The notes beneath the pieces were generated by a model. It worked only from the letters and a program-made list of their open reading frames with translations. It ran no database searches and was not told the DNA's origin. The position numbers were made by a program, and so were the translations under genes. DNA of 64,000 nt, taken from NCBI GenBank assembly GCA_046704725.1, contig JBJKRI010000003.1, forward strand, positions 131,890-195,889, written 5' to 3'. This stretch comes from Candidatus Woesearchaeota archaeon. Lineage in GTDB: Archaea > Nanobdellota > Nanobdellia > Woesearchaeales > SKIA01. Position 1 is the stretch's first letter. Each line of letters opens with the position of its first letter. Below, piece by piece: positions 1,079-46,996 of this stretch.

Positions 1079-1639
1079 ATGCCTGTCGATTATCTCTCGC
1101 TCATCAGCAAGCACACCTCCGGCGAGGATCCCCGCACGGTCCCTGCGTTCATCATCCATTCCGCGCTCGTCACCAAGAAAGCCCTCGACGTCGCTTCCTC
1201 GTTCTTGGAGCGTCATTCCGACGCGAAGATAGACCTACGGTTGCTCGAGGAGATGGGCATGCTCCACGACATCGGTATTTTCCGGGTCGAGGAGCCGATG
1301 CTCTTCACGCATGGCCCGCAGCCGTACCTGTCCCACCTCACCCGCGGCCGCGAGATCCTCGAGGAGGAAGGCCTTCCGGTCCATGCCCGCGCGGCCATCG
1401 CGCATTCCGGCATCCCTAAGTCGCATGTCGTGGAGAAGGAGTTGCCGCTCGAGCACGTCGATCACTTGCCCAAGACCTCGGAGGAGGAGCTGCTGTACCT
1501 GGCGGACCAGTTCTTCACCAAGCGTTTCAGCCAATTGTTCCAGGAGCGGTCGCTCGAGCAGACGCGTTCCTACGTCGAGAAGCACGGGAAGGACCGCCTT
1601 GCTTTCTTCGATTCTCTCTGGAAGAAGTGGTCGTCCTAG
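1079..1639 (+). CDS. HD-domain phosphohydrolase (HDIG)
   Basis: H..LHDIG..H..G..IL..H..YLAD motifs. Confidence 0.85.
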   Translation: MPVDYLSLISKHTSGEDPRTVPAFIIHSALVTKKALDVASSFLERHSDAKIDLRLLEEMGMLHDIGIFRVEEPMLFTHGPQPYLSHLTRGREILEEEGLPVHARAAIAHSGIPKSHVVEKELPLEHVDHLPKTSEEELLYLADQFFTKRFSQLFQERSLEQTRSYVEKHGKDRLAFFDSLWKKWSS

Positions 1640-2307
1640 AGGTGCTTGAGGATATCTCTGAGGTCGGTCACGCTGTGGGTCGCGGCTTTCTGCAGCTCTG
1701 CGTGTCCCTTGAAGGCGAACGATAGTCCGACGTGCTTGGCGATGGCCACGTCGTTCTTGCCGTCGCCGCAGAACGCGCACTCCGCTACCTCCACATTGTA
1801 TTCGTTGCGGAGCAATTCCACGAAATCCACTTTCGCGTGCAGGTCCGAGGGCAGGATGTTCCAGTACCCGATGGTTCCGTCGTCGTTCCAGAGGTGTTTC
1901 ACGCTCGCGAGCGCGTGCGGGATGCGTAGCTCCTTCTGCGCTTTCCCCGCCTGTTCGAAGAAGCCTCCGCTGATGATGGCGGGCACGATTCCGCGCGCGT
2001 GCAGCCCTTCGAGCAGTTCGTGCGCTCCGTTTCCGTACGGCATCTCCTCGATGAGTTGCCGGAAGCGCGTCTTTGTCAGGCCGTATTTCTGGTGGACGTG
2101 CAGGCTCGCTTCGCACCAGTCGCCGTAGTTGCGGAAGCCCCCTTCCTCCCACTTGCGTACGAGCGCTCGGTCTTCTTCGATAGCTCCTGGCCCGAGCGCG
2201 TGCGGGATGCGCAGCCACAAGGAGTCCCCGTGCTCGGGGTCCGCTCTCGCGCTGTCCTCTCGGAACAGCGTGTTGTCCATGTCGAGGAAGAAGAGCTTGA
2301 TGGTCAT
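1636..2307 (-). CDS. HAD-superfamily phosphatase (phosphoserine phosphatase-like)
   Basis: DMDNTL motif I, ISGG motif II, GDGKND motif IV. Confidence 0.85.
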   Translation of the reverse strand: MTIKLFFLDMDNTLFREDSARADPEHGDSLWLRIPHALGPGAIEEDRALVRKWEEGGFRNYGDWCEASLHVHQKYGLTKTRFRQLIEEMPYGNGAHELLEGLHARGIVPAIISGGFFEQAGKAQKELRIPHALASVKHLWNDDGTIGYWNILPSDLHAKVDFVELLRNEYNVEVAECAFCGDGKNDVAIAKHVGLSFAFKGHAELQKAATHSVTDLRDILKHL

Positions 2308-2388
2308 AGGGCGAAGCATCAGGAGGTGGTATTTACGCTTTCGGGCCGCAACCCTTTAAAAGCGGCTGGCGCTTCCGTTGCTTGTTAC

Positions 2389-2460
2389 GGCGGTTGTAGT
2401 GTAACGGTAACATGGGAGACTGTGGATCTCCAGTAGAGGGTTCGACTCCCTCCTTCCGCC
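2389..2460 (+). tRNA. tRNA-His (GTG) with encoded G-1
   Basis: D arm GTGT/ACAT, anticodon arm GGAGA-CTGTGGA-TCTCC, T arm GAGGG-TTCGACT-CCCTC, discriminator C; TTTAAA box at ~2355. Confidence 0.9.
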
Positions 2461-2461
2461 C

Positions 2462-3004
2462 GTGGAGATCCATTTCCTGACGGGCAACCAGCACAAGCTC
2501 GAGGAGGCGCGCGGTATCCTGCAAGGGCATGACGTCCGTTCCATGAGGATCGACCTGCCGGAGCTCCAGAGCCTCGACCCGCAGGAGATCGTCGAGGCCA
2601 AGCTCTCCGCGGCGGACGCGCACCTCCATGGAAAGCCCTATTTCGTCGAGGACGTCTCGTTCTGGGTCGGCGACACGGGTTTTCCGGGTCCCTTATTCAA
2701 GTTCATGTATTCCGCGCTCGGCAGGGAGGGCGTCGTGCGTTTCGCGCGCGCCTTCGGCCAGGAGACCGCTCGGGCGGTCTGCACCATCGGCTTGCGGCTG
2801 CCCGGAAGGGATCCCGCGTACTTCACCGGTGAGGTCGTCGGTCGCATCGTCGATCCGCGCGGCGATTCTGGTTTCGGCTTCGACCCGATATTCGTTCCGG
2901 ACGGCAGCGAGCTGACCTGGGCGGAGATGGGCTCAAAGCTCAAGAGCGAGGATAGTCATCGTTCGCGGGCGCTTGAGCAGATGGTCGCGTATCTCGGCTC
3001 TTGA
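2462..3004 (+). CDS. rdgB: Non-canonical purine NTP pyrophosphatase (RdgB/HAM1)
   Basis: TGNQHKLEE, VED, GFGFDPIF, SHRSRAL motifs. Confidence 0.93.
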   Translation: MEIHFLTGNQHKLEEARGILQGHDVRSMRIDLPELQSLDPQEIVEAKLSAADAHLHGKPYFVEDVSFWVGDTGFPGPLFKFMYSALGREGVVRFARAFGQETARAVCTIGLRLPGRDPAYFTGEVVGRIVDPRGDSGFGFDPIFVPDGSELTWAEMGSKLKSEDSHRSRALEQMVAYLGS

Positions 3005-3362
3005 TGATATTCTCGATCGCTTCTGAGATAGTATCGCTAAGCAGTCTGCTATCATATCTGCGTTCGCCTGCGCGATATTCCGCAACTTCTCCATGGATTA
3101 CGGCATACCCCATCATAATGACTCCGATGCCGGCCCCGAACTCAGCACCTGCCGCAATAGGAAAACCGCCTGCAAGCGTGTGCGCGTGCTGAATAACTTC
3201 GGGGGTGATATGCGTCGCTGCGCTGTATAGTGCGTCCCGGATGTCATGCGCTTGCTGCAGAAATCCGTAGATTCGCGTCGTTCCATCCACTGCCAAGTAT
3301 GCGCCGACACCAGCATTTATTGCTGAAGATAATACTGCTGCCTTTGAGAATAGTCTTGACAT
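2940..3362 (-). CDS. Hypothetical membrane protein
   Basis: 140-aa ORF with two hydrophobic stretches, AT-rich upstream region, lower GC; overlaps rdgB 3' end. Confidence 0.5.
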   Translation of the reverse strand: MSRLFSKAAVLSSAINAGVGAYLAVDGTTRIYGFLQQAHDIRDALYSAATHITPEVIQHAHTLAGGFPIAAGAEFGAGIGVIMMGYAVIHGEVAEYRAGERRYDSRLLSDTISEAIENIIKSRDTRPSAQAPANDDYPRS

Positions 3363-3575
3363 ATTTGTGTAGACACCCCTCCATTAATAAATGTGTCTAT
3401 TTTACTCACTCATAAGTAGTATTTTAAGCAATTATTTGAATCATTTGCGGCGTTGCGCCCTGTGCAAGAAATTCCATACCTTTTTAAAGCGTCTCGGATT
3501 CGCCCCGGTATCACGCCCGAGTGCAAGCGTCTGAGGGCGGCCGAAAAGGCATTTCTTGCGCTCGATACGATACAC

Positions 3576-4016
3576 ATGGCAGAGAACGCAGACTTCAGGC
3601 ACATCGTCCGCATCGCCAACACAGACTTGGCGGGCGAGAAGAAGATAGTGGACGCCCTGCGCAAGATCAAGGGCGTCAGCTTCATGTTCGCCAGCGCCGT
3701 GTGCACGGCGGCGGGCGTCGACAAGAACGGCCGCATGGGCGACATCAAGGACGCCGACATCAAGAAGCTCCAGGCGGTCCTCGAGCAGCCCGTCAGTGCG
3801 GGCATCCCCGCGTGGATGCTCAACAGGCGCAAGGACTACGAGACCGGCGCGAACAAGCACCTGGTCGTCAACGACCTCTCCTTCACGCACGACAACGACC
3901 TCAAGCGGCTCAAGAAGATCCGTTCCTACCGCGGTGTGCGCCACCAGCACGGCCTGCCCGTGCGCGGACAGCGCACCCGCTCCAATTTCCGAAAGAACAA
4001 GGGGAAGAAGAGATAG
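3576..4016 (+). CDS. rps13: 30S ribosomal protein S13 (archaeal)
   Basis: FRHIVRIANTDL..IKGV..IPAWMLNRRKD..YRGVRHQHGLPVRGQRTRSN. Confidence 0.97.
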   Translation: MAENADFRHIVRIANTDLAGEKKIVDALRKIKGVSFMFASAVCTAAGVDKNGRMGDIKDADIKKLQAVLEQPVSAGIPAWMLNRRKDYETGANKHLVVNDLSFTHDNDLKRLKKIRSYRGVRHQHGLPVRGQRTRSNFRKNKGKKR

Positions 4017-4628
4017 ATGGGAGACATCAAGCGCATCCGGAAGAAGTACGAGACCCCGCGCCATCCGTGGAACCGCGAGCGCATCGACGCCGAGCGCGTC
4101 CAGAAGCGTGACTATGGACTGCGAAACAAGAAGGAGATCTGGAAGTTCGAATCCCTCCTGAAGGGGTTCAAGGACCAGATTAAGGCATTCCCCTCCATGG
4201 AGCCCGCGCAAGCGCAGTTCCAGGAGCAGAAGCTGCGCGAGCGCCTCAAGCGATTGGGCATCGTCACCGACGACACCCCGCTCGGAGAGGTCCTCGGTTA
4301 CGGCGTCGAGGTCATGCTCGACAGGCGGTTGCAGACCATCGTCTTCAAGCGCGGTCTCGCCCGCACGCCCAAGCAGGCGCGCCAGCTCATCAGCCACGAG
4401 CACATCACCGTGGGCGAGCGCACCGTGAACGCCCCGAGCTATATCGTGACCAAGGACGAGGAGTCCACCATCGCGTTCCATCCGTCCAGCCCGCTCTTCC
4501 GTGACGACCATCCCGAGCGGATGCAGCCCGAGGAGCAGCGTGCGCACCGCAAGAAGCACGTGCAAGCGGACGAGGATCCGCAGCCGGAGGTCGTCGAACT
4601 GACCGAGGAGGACAAGGACATTGAGTAG
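4017..4628 (+). CDS. rps4: 30S ribosomal protein S4 (archaeal)
   Basis: [38 protein letters not shown]. Confidence 0.97.
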
Positions 4629-5019
4629 GGACAATGAGCGCTGGGGCATCTGCCACATCTACGCCAGCTACAACAATACCATCATCCATATCACGGACAT
4701 CACCGGGGCGGAGACGATCGCTCTTGCCAGCGGCGGGCAGGTCGTCAAGCAGCACCGCCTGGAGAGCAGCCCGACAGCGGCGATGACGGCGGCCAAGAAG
4801 GCCGGCGAGATCGCGAAAGAGGCGGGCATCAACGCCTTGCATGTCAAGGTCCGCGCGCCGGGAGGCCACAACGGCCCCTCGAACCCCGGTCCCGGCTCCC
4901 AGCCGGCCGTCCGGTCGTTGTCGCGCATGGGTTTCCGCATCGGCCTGATCGAGGACGTCACGCCGGTGCCGCATGACGGTTGCCGCAAGAAGGGCGGTCG
5001 TCGGGGGAGGCGAGTATGA
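4621..5019 (+). CDS. rps11: 30S ribosomal protein S11
   Basis: [42 protein letters not shown]. Confidence 0.97.
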
Positions 5020-5801
5020 ACATGGAGAAGCTCTTCGAGGACGGTAATGTGCTCGCTTTGCACATCACGGGCGTCCTGCCCGCGTACATCAACACGCTGC
5101 GTCGTTACATGGCCAGCCGCGTGCCGACCATGGCGATCGACAGCGTGGAGTTCAAGAGCAACAACAGCATCCTGTACGACGAGATGGTCGCGCACCGTCT
5201 CGGATTGCTCCCCCTCACCACCGACCTGGAGACCTATCGCCTTCCCAAGGAGGAATGGATCGAGCCCACGGGCGATCCCCGCGTCGAGGTCCAGCTCTCG
5301 TTGAAGGTGCCGAAGGTCAAGTCAGAGACCGTGGTCCGCGCCAAGGATCTCTCGACCAAGGACAAGAAGATCGTGCCGGTCTACCCTGACATGCCGATCG
5401 TCAAGCTCATGGAAGGACAGGACATCGAGCTCGTCGCGACCGCTCGCCTCGGTATCGGGGAGGGGCACGCGAAGTGGAGCCCCGGTCACGTCTGGTACCG
5501 CCATTTCCCGCATATCGCCATCAAGAAGCAGCCCAAGGACCCCAAGGCACTGGTTGAGCGCTTCCCCGGCGTGTTCGAGGTCAAGGGCGGCAAGCTCGCG
5601 CTCACCAAGGACGCCGCGTACCGGATGCCCGACATGGATATCGCCGACGACGGGATCGAGGTCTCGTTCGCCGACGACGACTACATCCTCACGGTCGAGA
5701 GTTGGGGACAGCTCACGCCCAAGGAGATAGTGAATCAAGCGTTCAGTGCGTACGACGACCAGCTCGACGAGTTCGCCAAGCTGGTGAAGGAGATCAAATG
5801 A
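5016..5801 (+). CDS. rpoD: DNA-directed RNA polymerase subunit D (Rpo3)
   Basis: [37 protein letters not shown]; no Fe-S cysteines seen. Confidence 0.95.
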
Positions 5802-12517: not shown

Positions 12518-13069
12518 ATGGCGAGAATGCCTTCACGTTCGAACGTCTGGATTATCCTCGGTGTTGTGCTCGTTGTGCTCGCTGTGGTGTTGCTGGTGAA
12601 TAATCTCGAATCTTCTACCTCCAGCACGGTGACGACCAGTCCGGATGGCACGCTCGCGGGCGGACAGCAGCAGACGACCCCATCACAATCACCGTCCGCC
12701 GCGACCGGCGCGGTCACGTACCAGATTGATGCGTCCGGCGTCAGCGACCTCGCGGGCGTGCAGCTCACGCTCACTTATGATCCTTCTGTCGTGCAGTACG
12801 TGAACGCGACCCCCGGTCCCTTCCTCGGCACGGGCAAGGATATCTTCTACCCGACATCCACTATCCAGACCGCTCCCGGGCTCGTGCGTGACCTCGTCCT
12901 CGTGCGGCTCGCCAAGCAGGGCGTCTCCGGTGGCGGGACGGTCTTCTACGTGCATTTCAAGCGCGTGTCCACGGGCGATCCGAACATCCATATCTCGGAT
13001 GCCCTGGTCGCCAACTCTCAGGCGCAGAAGCTGCCTTCCGCGGATATCCGCGGGCAGCTCGTCGGCTGA
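12518..13069 (+). CDS. Membrane-anchored cohesin-domain protein
   Basis: N-terminal TM helix, S/T/Q-rich linker, then IDASGVSDLAGVQLTLTYDPSVVQYVNATPGPFL..G.GTVFYVHFK cohesin-like beta sandwich. Confidence 0.75.
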   Translation: MARMPSRSNVWIILGVVLVVLAVVLLVNNLESSTSSTVTTSPDGTLAGGQQQTTPSQSPSAATGAVTYQIDASGVSDLAGVQLTLTYDPSVVQYVNATPGPFLGTGKDIFYPTSTIQTAPGLVRDLVLVRLAKQGVSGGGTVFYVHFKRVSTGDPNIHISDALVANSQAQKLPSADIRGQLVG

Positions 13070-13862: not shown

Positions 13863-13918
13863 AATGAGCTTTGTTGTCGAACGCGATGTTTTTTAAGAGC
13901 GTTTCCTGTCCTCGCCGC

Positions 13919-16900
13919 ATGGATTTCGTCGCGATCGCCGCAAAATGGCAGGAACGCTGGGAAAAAGACGCTATATTCGCCGCAAAAGAGGTTAAAGACG
14001 GCCTATACGTCCTGGAGATGTTCCCCTATCCCAGCGGGACCATGCACATGGGGCACGTGCGCAACTACAGCATCGGCGACGCCCTGGCGCGCTTCCGCTG
14101 GATGCAAGGCCATAGCGTCCTGCATCCCATGGGCTTCGACAGCTTCGGCCTGCCCGCCGAGAACGCCGCCATCAAGCAGAAGGCGGACCCCCGCGCGTGG
14201 ACCGAGAAGAACATCGCGCACATCACCGAGCAGTTCAAGCGCCTCGGATTGTCGTACGATTGGTCGCGCACGCTCGCGACCCACACGCCCGAGTACTATC
14301 GCTGGAACCAATGGCTCTTCCTCGCGTTCCTCGAGAGAGGCCTCGCCTACCGCAAGGAGGCTCCGGTCAATTGGTGTCCGAGCTGCCAGACCGTGCTCGC
14401 GAACGAGCAGGTCATCGACGGCAAGTGCTGGCGCTGTGGAAGCGAGGTGGAGACGCGCAATCTCAAGCAATGGTTCTTCCGCATCACGTCCTACGCCGAG
14501 GAGCTCCTCGCTGACCTCGGCACGCTCGGGGAGTGGCCCGAGCGCGTGCGCACCATGCAGCGCAATTGGATCGGCAAGTCCACCGGCGCGCGCGTGAGCT
14601 TTCCCGCCAAGGACGGCGCGGTCGAGGTGTTCACCACGCGTCCGGACACGTTGTATGGCGTGACCTATCTTGTGCTCTCGCCCGAGCATCCGCTCGTCGC
14701 TCGCTTCACCGTCAAGCAGAAGGAGAATGAGGTGCAGGCCTACATCGCCGCCGCCAAGAAGAAGACTTCCATCGAGCGCACGGCGGAAGGAAAAGAGAAG
14801 ACCGGTGTCTTCACGGGCGGCTCTGTCACGCACCCCCTCACCGGGAAGGAGATCCCTGTCTGGGTCGCTGATTACGTCCTGATGGATTACGGCACCGGAG
14901 CGGTGATGGGCGTTCCCGCGCACGACCAGCGCGACTACGACTTCGCCTCCAAGTACGGCATCCCCATCGTTCCCGTCGTGAAGCCCGAGGACGGCAAGAT
15001 GCCGACGGACCGTGCCTTCGTCGCCGAGGGCACGCTCATCAACAGCGAGGATCTCGACGGCCTGTCCACCGACAAGGCCATCGCCGCTGTCGCAAAGCGC
15101 TTGGCAAGCGACGGTCTCGGCCGGGCCGAGACCCAGTATCGCCTGCGCGACTGGCTGGTCAGCAGGCAGCGATACTGGGGAACGCCGATACCCATCGTCT
15201 ACTGCGAGGAATGCGCGAAGCACGATGTCTTCATGTTCCACGGCTGGGAGGACGGCAAGGACGCCGGCTTCTTCCCTGCGATGCGCGAGCACCTCTCATC
15301 CCTCGGCCACCGGCCGCATGCGGAGAGCTTCCCGGGAACTGACGCACCTGATTTCGACGTCTGGTTCGAGAAAGCGGACGGCATGCTCGATGGGCATGAT
15401 AGGCCGACCGTCATCGGGCATTCCATGGGCGGCCTGCTCTCCCTCAAGCTCGCCGAGAAGCATCCATTGCGGCGGCTCGTGCTCGTCGCTCCCGTCGGCC
15501 ACCGGCCATCGGAGGCGTACTTCACGCAATACAAGGATAAGCTCTCCGAGGAGGACCTCGCTGTCTATCGCGCCTATCAGGACCGCCCTTTGGACGTCGC
15601 TGCCATCAAGGGCAATGTGTCGGACATCACGTTCGTCTTCGGCGGCAAGGACCCTTGGATAACGACGGAGATCCGCGAGAAGTACCGTGCCGAGTTCGGC
15701 GATGTCGCGCATTTCATCGATCTGCCTTTTATGGGGCACATGTCCGAGAGCGAGGGCGTCAAGCGCGTGCCCGAGCTCGAGGCCTTGTTCGTGCAAGAGG
15801 CCGCCGCGGTCCCCGTCCCCGAGAAGGACCTGCCCATCCTGCTCCCGACGGACGTCTCGTTCTCCGGCGAGGGAAATCCCATCGCGACGAGCAAGAGCTT
15901 CGTCGAGACGACCTGCCCGAGGTGCGGCAAGCCCGCGCGACGCGAGACGGACACGATGGATACCTTCGTGGACAGCAGCTGGTACTACCTGCGCTATTGC
16001 GATCCGCACAACGGCGAGCGCATCTTCGATAATGATAAGGCGGACGCCTGGATGCCTGTCGACCAGTACATCGGCGGCATCGAGCACGCCATCCTCCACC
16101 TGCTCTATAGCCGTTTCATCACCAAAGCGACGCGCGACATGGGACTGCATTCCGTGGACGAGCCGTTCGTGCGTCTCATGACGCAAGGCATGGTCCTCAA
16201 GGACGGCGAGAAGATGTCCAAGAGCGTCGGCAATGTCGTCGACCCCTTGCCGCTCATCGACAGGTACGGTCCGGATACCGTGCGTGCCTTCATCCTCTCT
16301 GCATCCTTGCCGGAGAAGGAGATGGAGTGGTCCGACGAGGGTGTCGCGGGTGCGCACCGCTGGCTGCGCCGCGTCGAGGCGCTCTTCGAGAAACAGCAAG
16401 AGCGTAGGGAGCGGACCAGTGCTGATGCGTACTTGCGTAGCGCGGTGCATCGCACCATCAAGGACGTGACCGCGCAGTTCGAGGGCATGCGCTTCTCCCA
16501 CGCGATCAATTCGCTCATGGAGCTCACCGGCGCCATGGCGCGCTACGCCAAGAACGGCGTCCATCCGGACGTGTGGTCCGAGGCGACAGAGGCGCTGCTC
16601 AAGATGGTCGCTCCGATCGCGCCGCACCTGGCCGAGGAGATCTGGCACCGCAACCATGATGATTACATCAGCCTCGCGTCATGGCCTGTCGCGGACGAGT
16701 CCGCCATCGACCGTGCGGCGGAGGCCGGAAGGGACCTTGCCGATCGCACGCGCGATGACCTGCGCGAAGTCCTCTCTATCGTCGACCTCTCGCCGAAAGA
16801 AGCGGTATTGTTCGTTCCCGCCGATTGGAAGTACGCTTTCGTCTCCGCGCTCAAGGACGCATTGGAGGGGTCTTCTGATGCCGGAGCGATCCTCAAGGAG

Positions 16901-17149
16901 CTGATGAAGACCGATCTCAAGCGCCACGGGAAGGAGATCTCTAGGCTCGTCCCGCGCTTCGTCAAGGACCGCTCCAAGCTTCCCGCGCACCTGCTCTCTA
17001 GGGAGGAGGAGGCGGGCGCCTTGTCGGAGGCGGCTTCCGCATTGGGCACGGAGTTCGGCCTGAAAGTGACGGTGTTGGCGGAAGAGAAGGCGAAGGACGC
17101 GAAGGCTTCGCAGGCCTTGCCTGGCAAGCCTGCCATACTTCTACGATGA
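13919..17149 (+). CDS. leuS: Leucine--tRNA ligase (bacterial-type core, archaeal-like C-terminus) with inserted alpha/beta hydrolase domain
   Basis: MFPYPSG.MHMGH, FTTRPDT and [15 protein letters not shown] (CP1 editing), [36 protein letters not shown]-terminal [10 protein letters not shown]. Confidence 0.97.
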
Positions 17150-17796
17150 TATCCGTCCGGCCGTACAAGGATTCCGACCGTTCCGCCGTGCGACGCATCC
17201 ACTTCGATACCTGGCTTGTCGGAAGGTCGTTGCGTATGGTCGGCGCGAGCCGGGAGCGCGTCGACGCGTTCATCAACCCGTACATCACGCGTTGGAAAGA
17301 GCATGCTTTTGTCGCCGTGGACGGAAAGCGTGTGGTCGGCTACGTCGTCGGAGCGTTTCCCGGGGAGGAGCAGGGCAACAACGACCATGTCAGGATCGTC
17401 TTGCGCAATGTGCTGTCCTGGCCCGTCCTCTCGAAGGGCGACAGGCGTTTCTGGGGCTGGCAGCTACGCATCATGCTGTACCTGATGACGCACCCCGGAA
17501 CGGACGTCCTTGCTGTCAAACCACCGAGGGACGCCGCTCACCTGCACGTCAATCTCGCGAAGGACGCGCGCGGCAAAGGTATCGGTAAGAAACTGCTCGA
17601 GACGTTCTTTTCGCATCTGCGAAAGAACAGTATCAAGAAGGTCTTCGCACAGAGCTGGGGCACGCGCATCAATGACACGAGTGGTTTCTGGCGCAAGATG
17701 GGCTTTCGCTTGGCAGCGCATGCGAAGACGCGCTTCTGGAAGGAGTATTTCCCCGAAGAGAGTGTTGAACTGACGATGTGGGTGAAGAAGCCATAG
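17146..17796 (+). CDS. GNAT-family N-acetyltransferase
   Basis: [35 protein letters not shown]; ATGA overlap with leuS. Confidence 0.85.
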
Positions 17797-18310: not shown

Positions 18311-18573
18311 TGCGTGCCCGGGGGTGGACCGCGCCGGCATGCGCAGCTGACCCTGCGGGTCCCTCCCCCACGCGACCCGCGATACAGGCGTGCGGGCGCT
18401 GAGGTCTGCTCCATTCCTGGCCTGAACCGGTTCACGCCAACGCACCTCACCGAGGACGTGGGATCGACGGTCGCCGCAGGACTGCGCGTGACGGGTATAG
18501 CCGCCCCCCGGGCTTCGGCCCCGGATGAGGACGGTTCTCCGGTGACAGGGCACGCCCGGCGCCCCAGCCTAGC
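18311..18573 (-). ncRNA. ffs: Archaeal SRP (7S) RNA
   Basis: Reverse strand reads CTAGGCTGGGG..CCCTGTCACCGGAGAACCG..GGGGCCGAAGCC (Alu domain) and AACCGGTTCAGGCCAGGAATGGAGCAG (helix 8); TTTATAA box ~25 bp upstream; ends approximate. Confidence 0.9.
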
Positions 18574-18609
18574 AGGGGGAAGAACGGCCTGTCACTTATA
18601 AATGCGGCG

Positions 18610-34733: not shown

Positions 34734-35288
34734 TCACCTGAGCGCTTCGTCCAAGAGTTCGGGGAATTCTGTCGTCCCCATGTCCCGTTCGGTGTAGTGC
34801 CCGTGCTTCGGCAGCGAGACGACTTTCATGTCGAGGTCGCCCTTGATGATGTCGAGGCTGCGCTTGCCGTGCTCCCGTTCATTGTCCGAGGTGAACGCGA
34901 CGATGCTTCCCACGCGATCGTTGATTCCGGGGTCGATGTCGAACAGGCACAGTTCCCGTTCGGCATCCCGATCAGGGATCTTCCATGGCGCGACGAGGAT
35001 GAGCTTCTTGGCTCGTCGTTTCGTCTCGCCGAGCCAGCGCAAGAGGAACGTGGTGCCGCAGCTGTGTCCGATGAGGACCGTGTCCTCAGTCACTCTCTCC
35101 TCCGGGAATGCTTGCTTGAACCGTTCGTATTCTGGCTTCCATGGCTCGGGCATCAACGGCGCGTATGTCTTCACGCCATGCTTCTCGAGCTCGGCCTTGA
35201 GCCAGGGCATCCAGTGCTTGTCGTAGGTGCGCGTCTTCGGGTCGGTCTCCGGACGGCCCGGGCATCCGTGGACGATGATGCAGTTCAT
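34734..35288 (-). CDS. RBBP9/YdeN-family alpha/beta hydrolase
   Basis: IIVHG..HWMPWL..MPEPW.P..IGHSCG..LILVAP..SDN..GHY..EFPELL. Confidence 0.88.
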   Translation of the reverse strand: MNCIIVHGCPGRPETDPKTRTYDKHWMPWLKAELEKHGVKTYAPLMPEPWKPEYERFKQAFPEERVTEDTVLIGHSCGTTFLLRWLGETKRRAKKLILVAPWKIPDRDAERELCLFDIDPGINDRVGSIVAFTSDNEREHGKRSLDIIKGDLDMKVVSLPKHGHYTERDMGTTEFPELLDEALR

Positions 35289-46037: not shown

Positions 46038-46448
46038 ATGGACGCGCTCGACGTTTTCACAGGGGAGTTCACGACAAGGACCGTCCCGCACCGCACGGTC
46101 AAGGGCTCCTGCTATCTCGATGCGCCCCTTTTGGCCGTGGACGCGCCGCTCTTGTACACGAGCGTCCTGCTCGGCCGTCTGCGTATGGATTCCTTCAAGC
46201 CCAGCCTGCCATTGCTGGATCTTCTCGGACCGCTCACGGAGCGCAAGGCGGTCGTGAACGACAAGGCTGCCTGGCTGTTCATCTGCGGAAAGAACATCCT
46301 CAAGGAGGGCATCGTCTCGCTCTCGCACAAGCAAGGCCACGTCCTGGTCTGCAACACGCGCGACGAGGTCCTGGGCTATGGCAAGGTGACTGGAGCGGGC
46401 ATCACCAACAAGCTCGACAGAGGCGATTTCCTCCGGAGGAAGCGATGA
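46038..46448 (+). CDS. NIP7/PUA-domain ribosome biogenesis protein
   Basis: LGR..F.PS..L..VNDKAAWLFICGK.I..G..N..D.GDFLRR. Confidence 0.7.
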   Translation: MDALDVFTGEFTTRTVPHRTVKGSCYLDAPLLAVDAPLLYTSVLLGRLRMDSFKPSLPLLDLLGPLTERKAVVNDKAAWLFICGKNILKEGIVSLSHKQGHVLVCNTRDEVLGYGKVTGAGITNKLDRGDFLRRKR

Positions 46449-46996
46449 GGATCGGCCTCGACCTGGATGGAACGCTCGCGCAGATGTGGGAGCGCATGAC
46501 GCGTGAGCTGCAGGAGGCTGGCCATCCGGTCGAGTACGAGCAGTTCTATCCCCAAGCAGGCTATGCTCCTGTGCTGACCGCGGAAGAGACGCGGAGGTTC
46601 TATGCCGATCACCGGTCCTTGCTGCGACGCTCCTACGATATCTATCCCGGCGTCCGCGCCGTGCTCGACCTGCTCTCGGACAACGAGTTCGTCGCGGTGA
46701 CCACACGGGTCACCGAGGAGGAGCCGTGCCCGGATACGGTCTTCTGGATCGGCAAGCACGCCCTTCCCATACCTCAGGTCGTCCATTCCGCGGACAAGGC
46801 CGCGAGCTGCCGGAAAGAGGGTGTCGATGTCCTCATCGAGGATACTGCCGAGGAGGCGTTGAAGGTCGCTGAAGCGGGCGTTCCCGTATTCTTGTTCGAC
46901 AAGCACTACAACCGTCACGTGGACCATCCGTTGGTCACCCGCTTCACGCATTGGGTGGAAGTCCCTCGGATGGTCCGGCAGATGCAGGACGATTAG
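46445..46996 (+). CDS. 5'(3')-nucleotidase-like HAD protein
   Basis: RIGLDLDGTL..VTTR..K..LIED..YNR. Confidence 0.8.
   Translation: MRIGLDLDGTLAQMWERMTRELQEAGHPVEYEQFYPQAGYAPVLTAEETRRFYADHRSLLRRSYDIYPGVRAVLDLLSDNEFVAVTTRVTEEEPCPDTVFWIGKHALPIPQVVHSADKAASCRKEGVDVLIEDTAEEALKVAEAGVPVFLFDKHYNRHVDHPLVTRFTHWVEVPRMVRQMQDD

Follow-up and report, generated by a model that had tools for sequence, protein, structure and literature searches.

Aminoacyl-tRNA synthetases are among the best-studied of enzymes, and their accessory editing and tRNA-binding domains are textbook material. For leucyl-tRNA synthetase (LeuRS), the part available of one structure paper counts a module named Zn2 as one of the insertions by which the aminoacylation domain is split (PMC9424281), and the accessible portion of a domain-insertion paper that mentions LeuRS treats the editing domain alone as an insert (PMC13114784). 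Here we describe a 64,000-nucleotide stretch of DNA from a Candidatus Woesearchaeota archaeon (assembly GCA_046704725.1, contig JBJKRI010000003.1, positions 131,890 to 195,889; hereafter the window), in which the leuS gene encodes a LeuRS that carries, nested within its Zn2 module, a complete serine hydrolase of the type represented by YdeN and RBBP9. Valacyclovir is the L-valyl ester of a nucleoside analogue. Going by the title of a 2020 study by Shenoy et al., RBBP9 is reportedly a valacyclovir-activating enzyme. In cells, a form of RBBP9 whose Ser is swapped for a trapping residue captures Leu/Ile, Met, Phe, Tyr or Trp as single residues, and RBBP9 removes N-terminal aromatic residues with a requirement for a free α-amine (available sections of PMC8866121); the initial annotation of this locus had noted that RBBP9 is reported to hydrolyse amino-acid esters and N-terminal residues, and this description as an aminopeptidase agrees with it.

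The initial annotation held that a whole RBBP9/YdeN-type α/β-hydrolase with its triad lies inside the LeuRS, and our analysis bears this out. With residues numbered from the first TTG of the open frame (P0001), the Ser_hydrolase family PF06821 matches residues 455-640 at 35.7 bits (cut-off 22) over profile positions 3-170 of 172, covering 168 of the 172. A profile made from the insert and two stand-alone near-copies finds RBBP9 (PDB ID 2qs9, E 1.3e-11) and YdeN (PDB ID 1uxo, E 2.2e-9) as its top PDB sequence matches, and a protein-language-model look-up of the insert leads to PF06821 clusters as well. An AlphaFold2 model of the insert (66 sequences) reached a predicted local distance difference test score (pLDDT) of 97.0 and a predicted TM-score (pTM) of 0.92; compared with the PDB by Foldseek, it matches YdeN (1uxo) first, at TM 0.82/0.87 and a root mean square deviation of 2.2, then six RBBP9 chains at TM 0.78-0.85, after which the matches (FphI, BioH, feruloyl esterases) fall to TM ~0.6-0.7. 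The insert contains HDVFMFHGW at residues 451-459 and possesses a Ser-Asp-His triad with the Ser in a GxSxG elbow. Ser518, Asp594 and His623 are the sole invariant columns in a 66-sequence family alignment, and in the close subfamily (21 LeuRS, 16 FtsY and 2 stand-alone proteins) they are among 29 residues that are invariant in 39/39 members, so that the triad is conserved among the homologous fusions, one of the points on which the initial annotation had made its reading depend. The insert is therefore a YdeN/RBBP9-type serine hydrolase with its triad in place, and very probably a real, selected and active hydrolase module.

We set the boundaries of the insert by alignment with ten insert-less relatives, which read CxxCG(x)VPVP at this position where the window reads CEEC-AK...(196 aa)...QEAA-AVPVP. 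In three other insert-bearing LeuRS (P0005, P0010 and P0017) the Gly of CxxCG is kept on the C-terminal side of the insert, which places the insertion point right behind the knuckle's second Cys, and the linkers that join the hydrolase to the Zn2 knuckle are a few residues each. The ~190 in-frame residues proposed earlier stand, while the span first given, 15215-15800, shifts to that listed in the table. All of the motifs named at that stage were located (HMGH, TTRPDT, CEECAK, FHGW, GHSMGG, GKDPWI, MGHM and KMSKS), with CEECAK at residues 445-450, [10 protein letters not shown] at 646-655 and CPRCG at 682-686.

The earlier claim that the HIGH, KMSKS and CP1 motifs of the host enzyme are intact also held, both by motif position and by profile. 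The single open frame (13871-17149, plus strand) encodes 1092 amino acids from its first TTG, and the database copy (P0002) begins at Met17, window position 13919, for 1076 amino acids. TIGR00396 (leuS_bact) matches at 965 bits against a cut-off of 548.4, with the match split by the insert (residues 18-450, resuming after 645), and the NCBIfam label of the protein is leucine--tRNA ligase. The Pfam matches comprise the class I catalytic core, the editing domain PF13603 (239.4 bits, profile positions 1-184 of 185) and the anticodon-binding domain, with PF06821 between them. The CPSC at residue 169 and CWRC at residue 186 lie upstream of TTRPDT (255), which places CP1 after the first zinc knuckle of the LeuRS; the GTG/HDQRD region is kept, as are all four Zn2 cysteines (C445, C448, C682 and C685). 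An AlphaFold2 model of the full-length LeuRS (28-sequence alignment) has a pLDDT of 88.7 and a pTM of 0.75, with every 10-residue block at 71 or above, both junctions included, and compares with the LeuRS structures of T. thermophilus, N. gonorrhoeae and E. coli at TMt 0.74-0.86 (40% identity to PDB ID 1h3n).

We also observed that this LeuRS is a hybrid, with a bacterial-type body (TIGR00396 to position 779 of 843) and a last ~145 residues that match archaeal LeuRS models alone; these models, NF008957 and TIGR00395, match through to residue 1091, and a bacterial C-terminal domain was not found there. By its sequence features the window protein is thus a LeuRS, but not one of the textbook bacterial form. 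The genome (1.18 Mb in 8 contigs, 99.7% complete) has a single LeuRS, since the remaining matches to the LeuRS models fall below the cut-off and are apparently ValRS, IleRS and MetRS, as judged by frame length (the IleRS locus alone was examined further). As the sole LeuRS of so complete a genome the enzyme must, we infer, function with the insert in place, which would mean that the nested-hydrolase LeuRS still charges and edits tRNA-Leu. At the IleRS locus a candidate insert was rejected: the listed ORF of 1314 amino acids (a 1330-amino-acid open frame, 1580-5524 on the minus strand of L055, genome contig G000:C4) is explained by high-GC read-through upstream of the likely start (~Met305).

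Table. Coordinates of the LeuRS gene, its motifs and the nested hydrolase in the window (aa, amino acid residues; AF2, AlphaFold2)
Feature	Position	Strand	Basis or remark
leuS (LeuRS with nested hydrolase)	13919..17149	+	Met17 start; stop codon included; TIGR00396
HIGH motif (HMGH, aa 59-62)	14045..14056	+	motif search
CP1 editing domain, aa 231-411, with T-rich TTRPDT at aa 255-260	14561..15103	+	PF13603
First zinc knuckle of Zn2 (Cys445-x-x-Cys448); insert starts right after Cys448	15203..15214	+	motif and alignment
Inserted YdeN/RBBP9-type serine hydrolase, aa 450-645 (196 aa)	15218..15805	+	PF06821, PDB matches, AF2, Foldseek, alignment
Nucleophile Ser518 codon (GHSMGG, 516-521)	15422..15424	+	invariant 66/66, 39/39
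Triad Asp594 codon (GKDPWI, 592-597)	15650..15652	+	invariant 66/66, 39/39
Triad His623 codon (MGHMSE, 621-626)	15737..15739	+	invariant 66/66, 39/39
Second zinc knuckle of Zn2 (Cys682-x-x-Cys685)	15914..15925	+	motif and alignment
KMSKS motif (aa 781-785)	16211..16225	+	motif search

The organism is DPANN-like with a small genome, as indicated by an archaeal signal recognition particle (SRP) RNA in the window and by closest homologues whose source labels are Nanoarchaeota, Woesearchaeota and similar. Of the 40 relatives with which we compared it, 4 belong to its genus, 2 to its family and 34 to its order. The hybrid LeuRS type is present in 30 of the 40 and the insert in 0/30: in these the match to residue 449 abuts the match from ~645 in contiguous DNA, and their open frames, where complete, run to ~830-950 amino acids. 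In the other 10 the match is confined to the C-terminal part, and their LeuRS is apparently of the archaeal type. In a tree of the LeuRS core (hydrolase removed, 30 rows, quick LG+G4, without the fragment P0028 and without L011, which has the same longest open frame as L010 in length, printed start and junction), the window sequence falls within its own genus clade (SH-aLRT 99) as sister to an insert-less sequence (92), and the label for an insert at the Zn2 site requires at least five changes, on starred branches. A subfamily profile run against 60 genomes of the same order found no other member, the best other score being 64.8 bits against 351.6 for the window. The absence of the insert from 30 relatives, together with a LeuRS core inherited vertically within the genus, points to an acquired in-frame cassette, and the simplest reading would be one gain in this lineage, since the alternative calls for several precise losses, each restoring CxxCG-VPVP. 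The GC content at third codon positions (GC3) of the insert is 0.821, inside the sliding-window range of the host gene (0.806-0.908), and the gain is on this evidence either not recent or from a high-GC donor.

Comparison among three archaeal LeuRS (L045, L047 and L048) by the Nei-Gojobori method gives ratios of nonsynonymous to synonymous divergence (dN/dS) of 0.08-0.13 for the insert and 0.08-0.11 for the host, values that are approximate because host dS is near saturation. In the pair L047 (Nanoarchaeota archaeon) and L048 (Euryarchaeota archaeon SM23-78) the two inserts resemble each other more closely than the genes that carry them (86% identity and dS 0.65 for the insert, 76% and dS 2.1 for the host), which suggests that the cassette was swapped between leuS genes after the two host genes had diverged. 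Neither a target-site duplication nor a terminal inverted repeat was found at the window junctions, where short chance repeats alone are present. We looked for co-converted flanks and rejected them, as the 30-residue windows beside the insert are at least as similar to insert-less genus relatives (0.86, 0.87 and 0.80) as to insert-bearing LeuRS (0.80, 0.60 and 0.67); recombination inside the near-invariant flanks RQRYWGxPIP..YC and VPVPEKDLP would, however, leave no trace. Duplication of a resident YdeN-like gene was likewise rejected as the source, because the two resident genes score 99.8 and 68.3 bits against the family profile, the insert 164.8, and both are ordinary YdeN types. One of them, a stand-alone 184-amino-acid YdeN-type hydrolase at 34734-35288 (minus strand), lies 19 kb downstream of leuS, matches PF06821 at 39.3 bits, has an intact GHSCG elbow and falls outside the subfamily of the insert. 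The third YdeN-like sequence of the genome, the insert included (175 amino acids; 1477-2004 on the minus strand of L023, G000:C3:~46200-46710) has lost its nucleophile Ser and reads AYGMG instead of GxSxG.

The same cassette occurs in other proteins. Searching long proteins with the insert alone returned 36 besides the window's own, at 40-51% identity: 20 LeuRS, of which 13 carry it at the Zn2 site (6 with an archaeal-type C-terminus and 7 of the type of the bacterial Candidate Phyla Radiation, CPR) and 7 at a second site just before CP1, and 16 FtsY, assigned by precomputed Pfam domains, with the hydrolase in the charged N-terminal linker in the nine that were read. Two stand-alone members of the subfamily (P0039 and P0040; 194 and 197 amino acids) are 50 and 48% identical to the insert. 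At family level, a profile search of 1.84 billion representatives gave 1929 proteins at E<=1e-3, 272 at <=1e-10 and 18 at <=1e-30. Among the best 150 representatives, 94 are of 170-215 amino acids; LeuRS and its fragments account for 31 and FtsY for 3, with a single L22 fusion, a single S19e fusion, two Nudix fusions, one fusion to a class A penicillin-binding protein and no IleRS, ValRS or MetRS. Local LeuRS and FtsY queries were run on all 46 proteins of at least 230 amino acids among them, and 20 were also examined by Pfam scan, which did not extend to three unassigned proteins of 234-255 amino acids. The suggestion that similar inserts might occur in CPR and DPANN synthetases has thus been confirmed for LeuRS and not for the other synthetases. 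In all, we collected 49 hydrolase-bearing LeuRS with three insertion sites: the Zn2 knuckle (site A, 32 proteins), a position before CP1 at ~residues 245-252 in window numbering (site B, 12 proteins), and one inside CP1 at ~residues 372-408 by rough flank mapping (site C, 6 proteins), one LeuRS having a hydrolase at both sites A and C. Different hydrolase subfamilies are represented among the domains at these sites; at site B, for example, the LeuRS of G057, a genome of the same order, carries a divergent YdeN.

In a tree of the cassettes (39 rows, careful search) a single clade (100/99), nested among the archaeal LeuRS copies, unites the FtsY copies, and one branch splits the 25 copies with archaeal hosts, the window's included, from the 14 with CPR hosts, with support (79/82) that is not decisive. 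A pattern scan of the genome contigs found 6 true subfamily loci. We further observed that the subfamily is fused to L22 in P0043 and to S19e in P0049, and that in FtsY it adjoins a histidine-phosphatase domain (PF00300) in the N-terminal linker (P0006, P0045 and P0020). Several CPR LeuRS (P0004, P0022, P0029, P0054 and P0057) contain more nested enzymes, among them Nudix inside CP1, Ham1/ITPase before CP1, GIY-YIG and two tandem hydrolase domains.

Taken together, these observations can be assembled into a tentative account of what the nested enzyme does. A complete hydrolase (Ser518-Asp594-His623) sits at the tip of the Zn2 knuckle, between the second Cys of CxxC and the next Gly, and was probably drawn from a pool of related cassettes that appear to move among DPANN archaea, with those of CPR bacteria as their sister group, and that occupy three LeuRS sites as well as FtsY, L22 and S19e; selection would keep it as an enzyme. 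The trapping results for RBBP9, its cleavage of N-terminal residues and the valacyclovir title point to a family chemistry of ester and amide cleavage at hydrophobic α-amino acids, and by analogy with RBBP9 the module would most likely hydrolyse esters or amides of hydrophobic α-amino acids that carry a free amine. No LeuB-type dehydrogenase (PF00180) was found in the genome, where the control was found in 14/14 reference genomes, and without one leucine must be imported. Combined with imported leucine, the family chemistry leads us to favour a tethered accessory hydrolase which, in a host lacking the leucine pathway, may split peptides or aminoacyl esters close to the synthetase and the translation apparatus and so set leucine-like residues free. 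The activity, substrate and role of the nested hydrolase are in this respect extrapolated from its relatives, and its coupling to aminoacyl or leucine chemistry is a possibility that we put forward with less than even confidence. In favour of a preference for LeuRS, 31 of the best 150 representatives are LeuRS, 3 are FtsY and none is another synthetase.

Several observations weigh against this accessory-hydrolase role. The subfamily is also found in FtsY linkers (16 of the 36 long matches), in L22 and S19e and on its own, so LeuRS is not required for hydrolase function, which weakens the case for a role confined to LeuRS. No translation genes adjoin the stand-alone subfamily gene in L046, and in the relatives where both genes could be located the stand-alone YdeN gene either lies over 100 kb away from leuS or is placed on a different contig. 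With two M24 peptidases and Pth2 already encoded in the genome, the module has no obvious gap to fill. The RBBP9 pocket residues Tyr99, Leu103 and Glu108, as given in the available part of PMC8866121, have no obvious counterparts in the insert on hand inspection of the alignment, and the segment after strand β5 is ~20 residues longer in the insert than in RBBP9. Moreover, among the CPR LeuRS read here some also host unrelated hydrolases (Nudix, Ham1 and GIY-YIG), and a general carrier role fits this as well as a leucine-specific link does.

Such a carrier role, in which the hydrolase is active and selected for a job unrelated to leucine or tRNA (for example as a general esterase) and LeuRS, FtsY, L22 and S19e are permissive, constitutively expressed essential scaffolds, we consider rather unlikely, if a serious contender. 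The host would guarantee expression and retention in a tiny genome, and recombination within the flanks, whose near-invariance would hide the event, would carry the cassette from one leuS allele to another. Beyond the breadth of hosts just described, this explanation draws on insertion sites that are surface loops or hinges, Zn2 being itself an insertion module as far as the accessible text of PMC9424281 goes, and on the L047/L048 pair, where the cassette is younger than the host gene. Yet IleRS, ValRS and MetRS are built like LeuRS, zinc knuckles included, and account for 0 of the best 150 representatives against 31 for LeuRS, and since several YdeN subfamilies entered LeuRS independently at three sites, flank homology alone is insufficient. 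If the cassette were instead neutral or decaying, a passenger tolerated in a permissive loop, its location in a surface zinc knuckle, its absence from all close relatives and its long branch (1.06) in the insert tree would fit; but the dN/dS of the insert equals that of its host, the subfamily keeps 26 invariant residues besides the triad, the model is predicted at pLDDT 97, and the long branch coincides with an amino-acid composition shift in a high-GC genome, and we regard a passenger as very unlikely. Practically negligible, finally, is an assembly chimera or an intein- or intron-like element removed before the mature protein. One soil metagenome DNA run (share of words 0.05), searched at 85% likeness, yielded short conserved LeuRS pieces of other organisms and none bridging either junction; the frame is nevertheless open across 3.3 kb, the insert GC3 lies within the host range, and the same junction recurs in 13 other independently assembled LeuRS. 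Consistent with the first reading of the sequence, an intein was rejected: the Pfam matches of the window protein include no Hint, intein or LAGLIDADG family, the junctions lack terminal repeats, and the insert starts with KHD and finishes with VQEAA, followed by AVPVP.

A more specific proposal is that the hydrolase forms a third hydrolytic site, added to CP1 editing, which would act in cis or in trans as a deacylase of mischarged or N-blocked aminoacyl-tRNA or of aminoacyl-nucleotide esters. Isoleucine and methionine are residues that LeuRS misactivates. According to the available text, RBBP9 forms acyl-enzymes with Leu/Ile and Met (PMC8866121); its cleavage of the L-valyl ester of a nucleoside analogue, known from a reference title alone, points the same way, as does the covalent tie of the module to an enzyme that makes aminoacyl esters, and at its stop codon leuS runs into a GNAT acetyltransferase gene. 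Against these stand the intact CP1 with no evident editing gap, the cassettes of FtsY, S19e and L22, which are not beside the tRNA acceptor end, the presence of Pth2, and a small lid-less pocket without a recognisable tRNA-binding element, and we judge the proposal improbable. Replacement of a lost editing site is disfavoured by the intact CP1 (PF13603 at 239 bits). No AlaX, YbaK/ProX or DTD trans-editing family was found in the window protein by Pfam or NCBIfam at E up to 0.01, so a deacylase role would be a new use of the α/β-hydrolase fold. We would extend the proposal, as a long shot, to YdeN/RBBP9-type hydrolases in general: they might serve the translation apparatus by hydrolysing aminoacyl esters or N-terminal residues and, where nested in LeuRS, FtsY, L22 or S19e, act on aminoacyl-tRNA, aminoacyl-nucleotide esters or nascent N-termini, with the LeuRS copy providing a third hydrolytic site on a laterally exchangeable cassette.

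As to the surroundings of leuS, the GNAT gene (17146-17796, plus strand; 216 amino acids, PF13508 and PF00583) starts 4 nucleotides before the leuS stop, and with this overlap it is probably co-transcribed with leuS; tblastn found no homologue of it in the leuS loci of the relatives, which extend little beyond leuS. Upstream of leuS, a 183-amino-acid protein (12518-13069, plus strand) carries a cohesin domain (PF00963, 36.9 bits) and, judged by eye, a hydrophobic stretch at its N-terminus. The archaeal SRP RNA lies at 18311-18574 (minus strand, 98.5 bits) and a tRNA at 2390-2460 (plus strand).

A full-text literature search on LeuRS or other aminoacyl-tRNA synthetases with a nested hydrolase, on CPR and DPANN and on YdeN and RBBP9 returned no description of such an architecture, and in source databases such proteins are named 'leucine--tRNA ligase', 'alpha/beta fold hydrolase' or 'hypothetical protein'. 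What we add is an archaeal example that appears to have been gained within a genus, a Zn2 insertion point fixed to the residue, one cassette subfamily common to LeuRS, FtsY, L22 and S19e, and a selection test of the nested hydrolase against its host. A hydrolase in the Zn2 knuckle is unlike the textbook accessory domains in having an intact active site under purifying selection of host strength and a strong preference for LeuRS, and in recurring in ultra-small archaea and bacteria. If it does act on aminoacyl esters or N-terminal residues, it could reveal that organisms unable to make amino acids have a further layer of salvage or quality control for them, hitherto undescribed, offer a candidate class of physiological substrates for the orphan YdeN/RBBP9 family, human RBBP9 included, and stand as a natural case of in-frame enzyme cassette exchange between essential genes. 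Even should the synthetase be a mere carrier, reduced genomes would be parking enzymes inside essential proteins.

Compared with the closest described systems, the nested hydrolase shares with B. subtilis YdeN (1uxo) and human RBBP9 (PDB IDs 2qs9, 7oex and 9fcr), both of PF06821, a lid-less α/β-hydrolase fold of ~190 amino acids and the GxSxG Ser-Asp-His triad. Its identity to them is, however, 15-19% alone, it has ~20 additional residues beyond the strand that comes after its nucleophile helix, the Phe-pocket residues of RBBP9 named in the available part of PMC8866121 are not evidently kept on hand inspection, and it is nested within another enzyme where YdeN and RBBP9 are free-standing. The host resembles the bacterial-type Zn2 LeuRS of T. 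thermophilus (PDB IDs 1h3n and 2bte), N. gonorrhoeae (PDB IDs 6q89 and 7nu4) and E. coli (PDB ID 4aq7) in its HIGH and KMSKS motifs, in CP1 following the first knuckle and in the four Zn2 cysteines, and differs from them in the 196-residue enzyme within the Zn2 knuckle and in a last ~145 residues that find archaeal models alone. The NCBIfam family NF040702, 'isoleucine--tRNA ligase, N-acetyltransferase domain-containing', compared here by its name alone, likewise joins a class Ia synthetase to an unrelated small enzyme, one of another enzyme class. Small hydrolases are likewise nested in the LeuRS of Patescibacteria/CPR with Nudix, Ham1 or YdeN-type modules, known from database sequences, which share the Zn2 site and, at 40-48% identity, the hydrolase subfamily; in contrast to these, the LeuRS described here is archaeal and carries a single module, apparently gained within a genus whose other members are without the insert.

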